Shown: positions 8,976-11,690 of the stretch, one piece after another | Position numbering within the stretch: the first letter of the stretch is position 1 | Layout of the letters: every line of letters begins with the position of its first letter | Source: Shigella phage Sf22 | Sequence record: MF158045 | Length of the DNA: 64,000 nucleotides | Reading direction: 5' to 3' (one strand) | Notes under the pieces: generated by a model | What the model saw: the letters and a program-made list of their open reading frames with translations, nothing else | The model's database searches: none | What the model was told of the DNA's origin: nothing | Position numbers and translations under genes: made by a program

Positions 8976-9015
8976 AATAATTCCTCAGTAAGGGGCTGAA
9001 GCCCCTCATTTTATT

Positions 9016-9381
9016 TTAAATATCAAATTCGTTAAGAACTACATCAAAGATTGCTTCCAAGTGCTCAGGTTTAGCTTTGTTACTCAGAATATGACGAATC
9101 CAAGTTTTAACCAAAAGCTTGCGATTAACGCCATTCCAGCAAGGATGAGCCCCTAAATCGCGTTGACGGAAATCATCATCCAGAGCGATTTTAAAGTTGG
9201 AACCTTCCATTGTGATTGAAACCGTGATACCGTTTTCAAATCGCATATAAACGTAATTAGGAGTCATATACTGTTCAATTTCGCATACTGAACCATTTTG
9301 ATGTTTCCAGAGGCAAATAGTATCAATAGAACCTGCAATACCATTAGAAACATATTTACGTTCAAAGTTAATGTAGTTCAT
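9016..9381 (-). CDS. Hypothetical protein (121 aa; start moved to MNYINF)
   Basis: Conserved leader TTGGAGAATAAAATG; the track start is a TTG inside the RBS. Confidence 0.5.
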   Translation of the reverse strand: MNYINFERKYVSNGIAGSIDTICLWKHQNGSVCEIEQYMTPNYVYMRFENGITVSITMEGSNFKIALDDDFRQRDLGAHPCWNGVNRKLLVKTWIRHILSNKAKPEHLEAIFDVVLNEFDI

Positions 9382-9406
9382 TTTATTCTCCAAGATGTTT
9401 AATTGC

Positions 9407-9446
9407 GGTACAGGTATATAATATCATATCCTGTACCAAAGTAAAC
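9407..9446 (-). promoter_or_regulatory. Early promoter (GTTTAC -35) with 8-bp inverted repeat GGTACAGG/CCTGTACC bracketing the -10
   Basis: GTTTAC-N17-TATTAT on minus strand; arms at about 9407-9414 and 9430-9437. Confidence 0.45.
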
Positions 9447-9448
9447 AA

Positions 9449-9781
9449 TTATTTTACTACTTTCCAGTGCTTCATGTCAAGTTTACCAACTTTTTTCATC
9501 TTCTCAATTAAGCGTTCGGCACGTTGGCGAGCTGTAACATAATACCATTCACCTAATTCATTTTGTTCAATTTTTCCAACGATTACTGTATTCAATTCAT
9601 AAATCCAACCAGTAAAGAAATTATGAACTTGAATTGTAAAGGTGAAATCTGTTCCCATACCTTCTGTTGTTTCTACTTCAATAATATCACCTTCAACTGC
9701 CATTAAGAACCACATAGTTTCATCATATTTACCATTGAAGCATTTAGTTTTAACTGCAGCGTTCAGATTAATCGTTTTCAT
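9449..9781 (-). CDS. Hypothetical protein (110 aa)
   Basis: ORF track; AGGAGAATAAAATG RBS. Confidence 0.5.
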   Translation of the reverse strand: MKTINLNAAVKTKCFNGKYDETMWFLMAVEGDIIEVETTEGMGTDFTFTIQVHNFFTGWIYELNTVIVGKIEQNELGEWYYVTARQRAERLIEKMKKVGKLDMKHWKVVK

Positions 9782-9865
9782 TTTATTCTCCTTTGTTTGT
9801 GTAAGATAATACTATCACAAAGGAGCTATACTGTAAACAACTTTATGCAATCTTTGGAAAATAAA

Positions 9866-9890
9866 AAAGGACTCCCGAAGGAGTCCTCAA
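9866..9890 (-). terminator. Rho-independent terminator (GGACTCC-CGAA-GGAGTCC + T-run)
   Basis: Perfect 7-bp stem followed by TTTTTTATTTT on minus strand; identical hairpin recurs after soc. Confidence 0.6.
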
Positions 9891-9891
9891 C

Positions 9892-10068
9892 TTATGCTTT
9901 CTGCTTACCAAAACGAGAAGCATCATCTCGAAGAACCGCACGTGCTCGGCGCATGATCTTCTCAACAGTTTGATTGATACGAGAGTTCGACCCACGCTTG
10001 TAACCAGCGCGTTTAGAATCACCAACTTTCTTTTCAACTGCTTTCTTTGCTTTAACTTGTTTTGCCAT
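9892..10068 (-). CDS. Small basic protein (58 aa; start at MAKQVKAKK)
   Basis: Lys/Arg-rich ORF with AAAGAG RBS; the track's N-terminal extension lacks an RBS. Confidence 0.5.
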   Translation of the reverse strand: MAKQVKAKKAVEKKVGDSKRAGYKRGSNSRINQTVEKIMRRARAVLRDDASRFGKQKA

Positions 10069-10356
10069 TAAAAATTCTCTTTTAAACGAAAATGCAGGAC
10101 TTATTGGCATTGCCTGCGAAAGCCCTCAAAGGGGTACTTAGGTTTTGAATATTTACCGACAGGATAACCATAAACCCGTCATCATACCACCAAGACTTAC
10201 ACAGATAACACTTTTCTGACGCATGATAGTAACATTCAAGAGGTACACCGTAAAACTGCCGGGGTCTTAAAACTATAATGATTCGCAAATCATTAATCAG
10301 ACAGTTCGACGGCTCCTCGATTTTAGCTCACACTAAGGCAGTGAATCTCCAATAAA

Positions 10357-10605
10357 TTACTTCAGTGTTACCACAAAGTGACGAACTGCTTTTCGTGCAG
10401 CAGAAGCCAGAGGCTTAGCATATTTAAGTTCATCTTTTTCCTGAAGCTCAGCAGCTAATGCAGTTTGAGCAGGATTCAGATGTTTGAAATAACGCAGGAT
10501 TTCAAGAGCTTCGGCTTCAACATCAATAGATGCGCCATAGTTTTCGTGACCATTATTCCATGCGTTTCGTTGCAGTTCAAGAGCGTGTTGTAATTGTTTA
10601 ATCAT
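10357..10605 (-). CDS. rIII: rIII lysis-inhibition accessory protein
   Basis: 82 aa, MIKQLQHALELQRNAWNNGHENYG... matches recalled T4 rIII; synteny. Confidence 0.9.
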   Translation of the reverse strand: MIKQLQHALELQRNAWNNGHENYGASIDVEAEALEILRYFKHLNPAQTALAAELQEKDELKYAKPLASAARKAVRHFVVTLK

Positions 10606-10744
10606 TTAAAAATTCTCGTTAGAGATTAAAACTCGGTAGTCACGTTCTTCTGAATTTCATCTTCTTTCGACAGATCTCTCAGTTGTAGACTACCACATAG
10701 AATTGTTCGGTTAACTTATTATTCCGACACCCAATTCATATTAT

Positions 10745-10752
10745 TATTTATA
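10745..10752 (-). promoter_or_regulatory. Candidate late promoter (TATAAATA) in the 31-rIII intergenic region
   Basis: Exact TATAAATA on minus strand ~140 nt upstream of the rIII start. Confidence 0.3.
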
Positions 10753-11088
10753 TCACTTATAAAGACACGGAATAGCTTTATAATGACAGGTAACGAATTT
10801 TTGTTTAATTTCTTTTGGCTGCTTAAGACCCAGAGCTACAAAAGGATGCGGAACATTTCGAATTTGACCAACTGGAAGAGAAGTCAAATCACCAACTTCG
10901 CAGAAACCTTCAGGAACATCAGGACCGACAGAGTGAACTACACACAGTTCAGGAACTTCACCTTGAACACGTTTACCGATGATAAGTCCTGATTCTGTAA
11001 CTTCTTCATCACCGGCTTGTGCAGGTTCAGAAACTAAAATAACATATTCACCGACAGCACGAATTGGTAGCTGTTGTACTTCAGACAT
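10753..11088 (-). CDS. 31: Co-chaperonin (GroES analogue)
   Basis: 111 aa, [22 protein letters not shown]... matches recalled T4 gp31. Confidence 0.93.
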
Positions 11089-11144
11089 CGTTTTTCCTTT
11101 TTGTTAACAGATGAATTAATAATAACAAATAATTCTTAAAGCAT

Positions 11145-11453
11145 TTATTTACCAATAAATTGGAGTAAATGCTCAACTTTCATACCATTAACAGAAATCA
11201 ATTTGTCAATAGAAAAACCTCGCCATGCACCAAGCTCAACATCAAATACTGGAATCATGTCAGTAGATTCTTTCCGAGTAGATTCAGTCAATTTACCAGT
11301 TTGCATGGTTGGCATAAAGTCTGCATCACGAGTACCTTTCATAGTACGAATAGTACCATCAGACTTTTCAAAAACTACGTTTGAAACACCCATGGACAAT
11401 TTAGTTTTCAAAATTTCACGAATTGCTACTTTCTGCTCAGTTGTCAGTTTCAT
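11145..11453 (-). CDS. Hypothetical protein (102 aa)
   Basis: ORF track; synteny (31.1 position). Confidence 0.5.
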   Translation of the reverse strand: MKLTTEQKVAIREILKTKLSMGVSNVVFEKSDGTIRTMKGTRDADFMPTMQTGKLTESTRKESTDMIPVFDVELGAWRGFSIDKLISVNGMKVEHLLQFIGK

Positions 11454-11690
11454 TTATTTACCTATTACAGTTTTAATATGAGTTGTTCCACGTTCTTTAA
11501 GGGTGGAAAGTAATTTTTGGCATTTTTCTAAATCAGATTTCCAACTATATGGTCTATCAATACTAGTCCAATCAGTTTTATAATACTGTTTCCATTTAGA
11601 GAAAAAATATTTCTTATACTCTACAGCAAATGAGATGTTCTCATTAGAATAAGAACTAATTGCTGTGAGCTTTACCAAACGAAATTTCAT
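11454..11690 (-). CDS. Hypothetical protein (78 aa)
   Basis: ORF track; synteny (31.2 position). Confidence 0.5.
   Translation of the reverse strand: MKFRLVKLTAISSYSNENISFAVEYKKYFFSKWKQYYKTDWTSIDRPYSWKSDLEKCQKLLSTLKERGTTHIKTVIGK

Follow-up and report, generated by a model that had tools for sequence, protein, structure and literature searches.

What does an interval of 288 nt without a credible gene do between two genes of a T-even phage? This question is raised by the spacer between rIII and gene 30.9 of Shigella phage Sf22 (sequence record MF158045), of which a stretch of 64,000 nucleotides, called the window in the following, was analyzed. The island at 10069-10356 is the whole interval from the stop codon of rIII (10357) to the ATG of 30.9 (10068-10066), both genes being read from the minus strand. 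The first-pass annotation of this DNA, made from the sequence alone, had pointed to a gap of about 290 bp between rIII and a small basic open reading frame (ORF); the borders of this interval prove to be exact and it is the largest gap of the local gene row. In T4 the equivalent gap, which covers 244 nt at 130541-130784, is likewise the biggest of its gene row, the neighboring gaps measuring 41–147 nt. The window belongs to the T2-like type of Tequatrovirus: the 901-nt stretch around the island is 99% identical to phage T2, and 793 phage records are 80–99% identical to this stretch. In the T2 records the gap between rIII and 30.9 is either unannotated or filled with short hypothetical ORFs which disagree between records, and the rIII–30.9 spacer was not found described in the literature when this was searched for gene names, topics and sequence strings.

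The spacer consists of several modules which fold independently and whose helices are supported by compensatory base changes. We read the island as a structured non-coding part of the rIII–30.9 mRNA which probably controls the translation of 30.9 or the stability of the RNA, and we assign to this reading a probability of about one half. The element is new to the T-even model phages, although structured RNAs of this general kind are known.

Comparative evidence for RNA structure

The rIII–30.9 intervals compared come from annotated phages, IMG/VR contigs and metagenomes and comprise 67 loci with 47 distinct spacers of 119–422 nt. Folding energies had been proposed by the first-pass annotation for both strands, and here the whole island is unremarkable with z-scores of −1.21 (minus strand) and −1.49 (plus strand); in single-sequence folding the module called A below is the only one to stand out (z = −2.68). 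Since the energy of the whole island is no better than chance, we credit the structure to the comparison between phages and not to the lone sequence. This comparison does support helices of the minus strand. A model of 12 helices, derived from the window sequence itself, was applied to an alignment of 18 close relatives, in which 95.9% of the cells are paired. Changes on both sides of a helix occur at 8 pairs as against 2.2±1.1 in shuffled alignments (none of 500 shuffles reached this number, a control which is not to be read as a probability) and 0–3 in slid controls. Examples are the helix GCCGU/ACGGU, which is changed to GCCAU/AUGGU via a G·U intermediate, AACUGUC/GGCAGUU, which is changed to AAUUGUC/GACAAUU, and CAGA/UCUG, which becomes CAGC/GCUG. 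RNAalifold, run on the same alignment, recovered module A and helix H1 of module P independently.

The comparison also tells which strand is structured. There are 131 G·U cells as opposed to 22 A·C cells, and module B folds with −9.1 kcal/mol on the minus strand and with only −3.0 kcal/mol on the plus strand; the structured strand is therefore the gene-sense strand. Moreover the spacer is more conserved than the coding DNA next to it when different genera are compared. With Mosigvirus and Dhakavirus the spacer shares 87–94% identity in the aligned columns, whereas the values are 82–88% for rIII DNA and 60–72% for the third positions of rIII; against Gelderlandvirus they are 88.8%, 69.5% and 50%, respectively. 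Within Tequatrovirus the conservation of the spacer is slightly below that of rIII, which fits a mosaic exchange of modules.

The first-pass annotation had offered a structured RNA, a regulatory leader or a degenerate insertion remnant as possible interpretations and had proposed to compare the same interval in other T-even genomes. With the modules conserved in these genomes, the compensatory changes, the excess of G·U over A·C and the conservation above the neighboring coding DNA, the structured RNA is supported for the minus strand, so that on the comparative data the earlier interpretation finds partial support. The remnant, on the other hand, is rejected: the region is constrained and its motif P is present in all spacers compared and in at least 11 metagenomic loci. 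As to the individual observations, the hairpins GCAGG-N14-CCTGC (10094-10117), CCCT-CAA-AGGG (10123-10133) and TAATGATT/AATCATTA (10276-10295) are all present, the loop of the last, an 8-bp stem, having 4 nt (CGCA) and not 5 as had been given. The island had also been called less AT-rich than its flanks. This is not the case because its GC content of 0.396, which exceeds the window mean of 0.356, is lower than that of both rIII (0.410) and 30.9 (0.435). The earlier observations are thus confirmed in part.

An element acting at the level of DNA, such as a replication origin, an inverted repeat bound by a protein or a recombination site, is scarcely credible in view of these pairs, as the many G·U pairs correspond to mismatches in the opposite strand and would make no sense in a DNA duplex. 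Such an element is brought to mind by a 10-nt 'ori type 2 repeat' annotated in phage ATK47 immediately upstream of 30.9 (L004 1211-1220; KT184309.1 41135-41144) and by the sequence TTATCC within P, which resembles part of a DnaA box. An array of direct repeats is, however, not visible, and we know of no T4 origin mapped to this site.

We also asked whether the island could encode a small protein or a leader peptide. The longest candidate, an ORF of 68 aa on the minus strand (10082-10288, TTG start), had already been judged not credible by the first-pass annotation: it lacks a ribosome-binding site, it is confined to T2-like spacers, and it has no Pfam match and only a non-significant PHROG match (E = 0.27). 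Two smaller ORFs of the island, which were scanned against PHROGs only, gave no match. Across the 47 spacers neither frame nor strand nor length of the longest ORF is constant, even between near-identical phages (in T4 it is a 49-aa antisense ORF), and the spacer indels are not multiples of three. A conserved coding frame, named beforehand by the first-pass annotation as evidence to the contrary, was looked for among these spacers and none emerged. The second candidate is a micro-ORF starting at the conserved AUGAUG of P. Most sequences keep AUGAUG or AUGUUG where P begins on its 5′ side, and several genera read M-(M/L)-T-(R/W)-L-V-x-I-x-S-L-N-I-Q-N-Y in this frame. We rejected it nevertheless because frame, length and start codon vary. 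The micro-ORF is 5–34 codons long, a 1-nt indel within Tequatrovirus shifts its frame, and the AUG is missing in three lineages (L033, L035 and L047); in addition its variable sites are second codon positions, which change jointly with their pairing partners in helix H1. A coding function of the island is therefore rejected as very improbable.

Modules of the spacer, their gain, loss and permutation

Read along the minus strand the modules of the window follow each other in the order Q, A, B, P, H, L and a small hairpin at the Shine-Dalgarno sequence. P is the only one common to every spacer: it is present in 47 of 47, always between rIII and 30.9, an order of genes which is retained in all 67 loci. 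P (10137-10186, minus strand) comprises a conserved UAUGAUG, the helix H1 (GACGGG/CCUGUC), a conserved linker GUAAAUAUUCAAAA and a putative helix H2 (GGUU/AACC and UUUA/UAAG), which would turn P into an H-type pseudoknot. The two-helix model was tested on 31 distinct sequences from many genera. In this set 81.3% of the cells are paired (69.8±1.5% after shuffling), and the covariation amounts to 0.342 compared with 0.149±0.018 for shuffled sequences (0 of 500 as high) and at most 0.172 for slid controls. Helix H1 is paired in 94.8% of the cells and three of its five pairs covary; the counts at two of its pairs are AU16/UA14/GC1 and CG22/GC6/UA3. When strands were swapped between lineages, cognate partners paired better than foreign ones (H1 −4.55 vs. 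−2.49 kcal/mol, H2 −5.41 vs. −3.28 kcal/mol).

Upstream of P, module Q (10327-10345, minus strand) is a small hairpin, UUCAC/GUGAG, with a conserved 9-nt loop UGCCUUAGU. Across genera its stem occurs as CAC/GUG, CGC/GCG, UGC/GCA and AGC/GCU, and the covariation is 0.472 (shuffled 0.197±0.053, 0 of 500 as high; slid controls at most 0.133). Module A (10236-10320, minus strand) was obtained by folding and by RNAalifold and is a long irregular hairpin of four stacked helices, namely UCGAGG/CCUCUUGA, GCCGU/ACGGU, AACUGUC/GGCAGUU and the apical UAAUGAUU-UGCG-AAUCAUUA. Its minimum free energy is −25.9 kcal/mol; in the 18 close relatives 97–100% of the cells are paired and compensatory changes are found at 5 pairs. 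Phage PP01 and Gelderlandvirus keep the base of A and lack the apical part. Module B (10185-10231, minus strand) is a hairpin with an outer stem UACUAUCA/UGGUGGUA and the inner stem CAGA/UCUG, the latter being CAGC/GCUG in Mizar-type phages, and has 99–100% of its cells paired. It is gained and lost as a complete unit, is absent from T4 and is replaced in other strains by a 146-nt element which we call X.

Downstream of P, module H (10120-10137, minus strand) is a hairpin, GUACCC-loop-GGGCUU, with conserved flanks. It occurs once in the window and is found in most spacers, though not at a constant position; in some genera it follows the rIII stop codon immediately. Covariation is little informative here because the stem barely varies. 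On the plus strand the complement of this hairpin followed by ACTTAGGTTT (10122-10135) was flagged as terminator-like, which is probably incidental as there is no plus-strand gene nearby. Module L (10094-10117, minus strand) is a hairpin, GCAGG/CCUGC, with a conserved 14-nt loop CAAUGCCAAUAAGU, and in Gelderlandvirus the stem is changed to AACUGG/CCAGUU with the loop retained. In T2/T4-type phages this loop is complementary to the start region of 30.9 (−8.1 to −8.4 kcal/mol, among the top 0–2% of the spacer 14-mers). The last hairpin, AUUUUC/GAGAAU (10074-10093, minus strand), encloses the Shine-Dalgarno sequence of 30.9 (AAGAG). It is predicted in the minimum-energy folds, with 98.6% of cells paired in close relatives, and an analogous UUCUCC...GGAAGA hairpin lies at the ribosome-binding site of 30.9 in other genera. 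The mean unpaired probability of the Shine-Dalgarno window is 0.23–0.55 across genera, figures which are given without background control.

The modules are single-copy. A covariance model of P finds one match in the window (72 bits at 10128-10187, the next best having 14 bits), the patterns of H and P are unique and no repeat copies of the modules were found in the 64 kb; about 770 phage records contain the island, each with one match to it. A pattern scan of metagenomes for P gave 112 matches, of which 80 loci were listed and then judged by the covariance model. At least 11 are true P motifs, all of them between rIII and 30.9, and most of the other listed loci are chance matches.

From spacer to spacer the modules appear, vanish or move as complete units. 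In Tequatrovirus alone the spacer measures 119 nt in OES_C-3 (P-H-L only), 163 nt in Mizar (B-P-H-L), 194 nt in PP01 (A without its apical part), 244 nt in T4 (without B), 288 nt in T2 and the window (the full module set) and 396 nt in ESh34, which carries X instead of B. This natural series of deletions and replacements (119–396 nt, in one genus) already tells which modules are dispensable, and it offers an experimental handle on two poorly understood genes, rIII and 30.9. In other genera orders such as P-Q-X-H, X-P-H and H-X-P are found.

Element X itself, which lies outside the window, is an RNA-like element of about 146 nt in the rIII–30.9 spacer. It was found at 404 places in 403 phage records, about one copy each, from phages of Klebsiella, Escherichia, Enterobacter, Shigella, Yersinia, Citrobacter and Serratia (e.g., L005 737-882 of Shigella phage ESh34, L012 and L018), and it occupies the place of B in some strains of Tequatrovirus and Mosigvirus. 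For X, 42 pairs are predicted by RNAalifold; compensatory double changes occur at 20 of these, and a terminal helix closes the element. No match to Rfam was found for X, and from its sequences it looks like an undescribed structured RNA family.

P is absent from more distant T4-like lineages. Two RB49-sized genomes (L115 and L121) have neither 30.9 nor P, and other distant T4-like genomes have a 30.9 homologue of only 44 aa which is without the lysine-rich N-terminal part. By this distribution P is tied to the long form of 30.9 and is not indispensable for the expression of a 30.9-like gene.

Transcription and a possible leader of gene 30.9

The genes of the neighborhood are read from the minus strand, gene 31 (10753-11088) being followed by rIII (10357-10605) and 30.9 (9892-10068) and these by a strong intrinsic terminator. 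The coding sequence of rIII (82 aa), the upstream gene of the transcription unit, is 99–100% identical to rIII of T2/T4. Its product is an accessory factor of lysis inhibition and a binder of ribosomal protein S1. Gene 30.9 encodes a very basic protein of 58 aa (PHROG 1427, a family of the function-unknown class) and is present in every locus carrying P. Searches of gp30.9 against Pfam, NCBIfam and the PDB gave no match and hence no functional clue.

The terminator after 30.9, GAGGACUCC-UUCG-GGAGUCCUU followed by a U-run (9867-9888, minus strand), was found by a terminator scan and is annotated in phages SV76 and ATK47. Between rIII and 30.9 the scan found no minus-strand terminator, its minus-strand sites being restricted to the 3′ end of 30.9 (9930-9914) and the site after 30.9 (9888-9867). 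A T4-type late promoter motif, TATAAATA, lies upstream of rIII (10745-10752, minus strand). It is an exact match, the only exact one in 9800-10800, and on the minus strand of this range it is the sole match even with one mismatch allowed, so that the island has no late promoter; a MotA-type promoter was not found in it either. According to published work rIII is served by early, middle and late promoters (PMC9409239). Because the upstream promoters serve rIII and the island has neither an internal terminator nor a late or MotA promoter, it is most simply read as part of the rIII–30.9 RNA.

The possibility that the island is ordinary regulatory DNA, that is a promoter of 30.9 with a preceding stem–loop as in PeSL cassettes, or else what is left after the decay of such cassettes or of an inserted mobile gene, was weighed on the same data. 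Three sigma-70-like matches are present on the minus strand, TTTACG-17-TACTAT with TGn (10254-10226), TTATCT-16-TATGAT with TGn (10208-10181) and CTGATT-17-TATAGT; the conserved UAUGAU of P looks like a −10 hexamer, and the indel mosaicism resembles the products of PeSL recombination (PMC4122927). Yet each of the three scores 8/12, which is below the threshold of the scan, no site reaches 9/12 and the number of sites is no higher than in shuffled sequence. The best candidate has its −10 deleted in T4, and no −35 is found at constant spacing from UAUGAU. The GTTTAC element resembling a −35 which the first-pass annotation had named does not exist as an exact copy on either strand, the nearest being GTTTTAC (minus strand, 10256-10250) and ATTTAC (plus strand). 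Furthermore the modules are single-copy and not dispersed through the genome, they are conserved above adjacent coding DNA, and their compensatory changes and G·U pairs indicate selection on RNA pairing, which one would not expect of a promoter or a decaying remnant. Regulatory DNA of this kind is thus an unlikely explanation of the island.

How could a structured part of the rIII–30.9 mRNA act? RNA polymerase most likely comes in from promoters upstream of rIII and stops at the terminator after 30.9; in that case the island would be a 3′ untranslated region for rIII and a leader for 30.9 at the same time, and it would most likely serve the post-transcriptional control of 30.9. We infer that the Shine-Dalgarno sequence of 30.9 is occluded by the last hairpin (AUUUUC/GAGAAU) and, in T2/T4, the start region perhaps also by the loop of L; P and the other hairpins could offer a platform for binding or, as a barrier or protective fold, stabilize the RNA. 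It is the recurrence of the Shine-Dalgarno hairpin across genera and the pairing of the L loop with the start region in T2/T4 which make us favor the leader. With respect to RNA stability we also considered sites for RegB. The island has two GGAG motifs, which were rejected since they do not fit the strong-site consensus GGAGRAYARAA (PMC3014915), and the first of them is GGUG in Mosigvirus.

Several findings weigh against a leader of 30.9. The folding energy of the whole island is unremarkable, and since the sequences compared are related to each other the shuffle tests overstate the significance. The cross-genus identity could stem in part from recent exchange between phages and not from selection alone. 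Helix H2 of P is paired in 69.8% of the cells and is weak in Tequatrovirus including the window (−3.0 kcal/mol). The pairing of the L loop with the start region is not consistently kept outside Tequatrovirus, and for this reason it is a local hypothesis only. From genus to genus the order of the modules is permuted and P lies about 65 to 300 nt from the start of 30.9, which is unusual for a leader relying on a fixed geometry. Finally, in two distant T4-like lineages (L118, L120 1725-1735) rIII is followed after 8–9 nt by the 44-aa homologue of 30.9, with no spacer and no P. As some lineages keep only these few nucleotides after rIII, 30.9 can be expressed without such a leader.

The permutation of the modules, the variable distance of P and the existence of spacer-free lineages keep another explanation alive, which we regard as possible and hold tentatively. 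The modules could be non-coding RNAs, cut from the rIII–30.9 transcript or initiated at a weak promoter within the island, whose action is in trans: they might form a ribonucleoprotein with gp30.9, a very basic protein, or be decoys or regulators in host takeover, and the slot would serve as a landing site where phages exchange RNA cassettes. Whole folding units are gained, lost and permuted so that 119, 163, 194, 244, 288 and 396 nt are found in one genus. X is a self-closed multi-helix RNA of 146 nt in which 20 pairs covary; its copies in Klebsiella and E. coli phages share 94% identity, and the rIII genes of the X loci are only about 64–76% identical (DNA) to that of the window. P, whose position relative to the start of 30.9 varies, accompanies the long 30.9, while the lineages without P have a truncated 30.9 or none. 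A trans-acting small RNA could have escaped notice, none from T4 having been functionally characterized by the time of a review from 2010 (PMC3014915). On the other side, the modules are not delimited by a promoter or terminator, they show no similarity to rnaC/rnaD of T4 or to any Rfam family, and no target complementarity was identified. The more specific proposal that the rIII–30.9 slot is a cassette site for horizontally exchanged, independently folding non-coding RNAs (P, and X in more than 400 phage genomes) which constitute undescribed families acting in trans we consider doubtful; if true, RNAs of this sort would be without precedent in the T-even model phages.

Comparison with known RNAs

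The covariance-model search for known RNA families which the first-pass annotation had suggested came back empty: Rfam 15 has no match inside the island up to an E-value of 10, none at the gathering score in the 64-kb window and none in the related spacers. ARAGORN found no tRNA or tmRNA in 9000-11500 and none in 13 related loci. Rfam thus lacks at least two candidates for RNA families, namely P and X. Outside the island, a sub-threshold match to the Rhizobiales small RNA Atu_C8 (31.4 bits compared with a gathering score of 50) covers the 3′ end of 30.9 and the terminator (9853-9936, minus strand) and is most likely driven by the terminator hairpin.

The closest working analogue of a leader of 30.9 is the leader of gene 32 in T4, T2 and RB69. 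Its pseudoknot lies 67 nt upstream of the start codon and is perhaps the sole viral pseudoknot that autoregulates translation (PMC3014915). Like the leader proposed here it belongs to a T-even mRNA, P ending in the window about 65 nt upstream of the 30.9 start, and both are conserved across T-even relatives and missing in RB49-like phages. There is, however, no sequence similarity to P, the second helix of P is only moderately supported and P is not at the same distance from the start codon in all genera. In addition gene 32 has an unstructured A+U-rich tract (UUAAA repeats) up to the ribosome-binding site where the island has the hairpins H and L. The gene 32 protein binds its own leader; by analogy gp30.9, which is basic, of 58 aa and without a known fold or family, might bind here. 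Few viruses have been studied as much as T2 and T4, and yet the island is a second, unannotated structured RNA region of the T-even genomes.

Other T4 genes, namely e, soc, 49 and I-TevI, have hairpins which sequester the ribosome-binding site; the island resembles them in that the Shine-Dalgarno sequence of 30.9 falls in a small predicted hairpin, with an equivalent in other genera. In these genes a late promoter in the hairpin yields a shorter, translatable RNA, whereas the island has no late promoter motif and its predicted hairpin is short. The PeSL cassettes (Arbiol 2010; Comeau 2014; PMC4122927) are likewise intergenic stem–loops, placed beside the translation start signals (ribosome-binding site and start codon) of a gene in a variable part of the genome with indels and swapping of modules between related phages. 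They are, however, multi-copy with a good sigma-70 early promoter after the stem–loop; the modules of the island are single-copy, have no consensus promoter and show covariation of the RNA type. As in PeSLs, a Shine-Dalgarno sequence (AAGAG) and then a start codon (the ATG of 30.9 at 10068) are found at the 3′ end, which is true of any gene leader.

The RNAs rnaC and rnaD of T4 (species 1 and 2) are also non-coding T4 RNAs of unknown function; they differ in that they lie in the tRNA cluster, are matured like tRNAs and have no sequence similarity to any module of the spacers. In size and layout P is similar to pseudoknot aptamers of the preQ1-I and SAM-II type, with a stem of 6 bp, a loop pairing downstream and an A-rich linker with a ...CAAAACCUAAG tail. 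This is a likeness in shape only, as there is no Rfam match even at an E-value of 10 and no ligand-related gene context, and as of 2010 no T4 riboswitch had been functionally characterized (PMC3014915).

Two minor observations concern the surroundings and the comparison set. Just past the terminator of 30.9 and before gene 30.8 (9449-9781) there is a sigma-70-like promoter, TTTACA-17-TAGTAT with TG (9809-9837, minus strand). This succession of terminator and promoter is a PeSL-like arrangement which the island itself does not have. In the IMG/VR contigs 3300045988_074297 (L127 1289-1636) and 2974717474_000001 (L128) a T4-type spacer with the first bases of 30.9 is fused to the last ~28 codons of rIII, giving a chimeric ORF of 42 aa, which is either the junction of a rearrangement or duplication or an assembly artefact.

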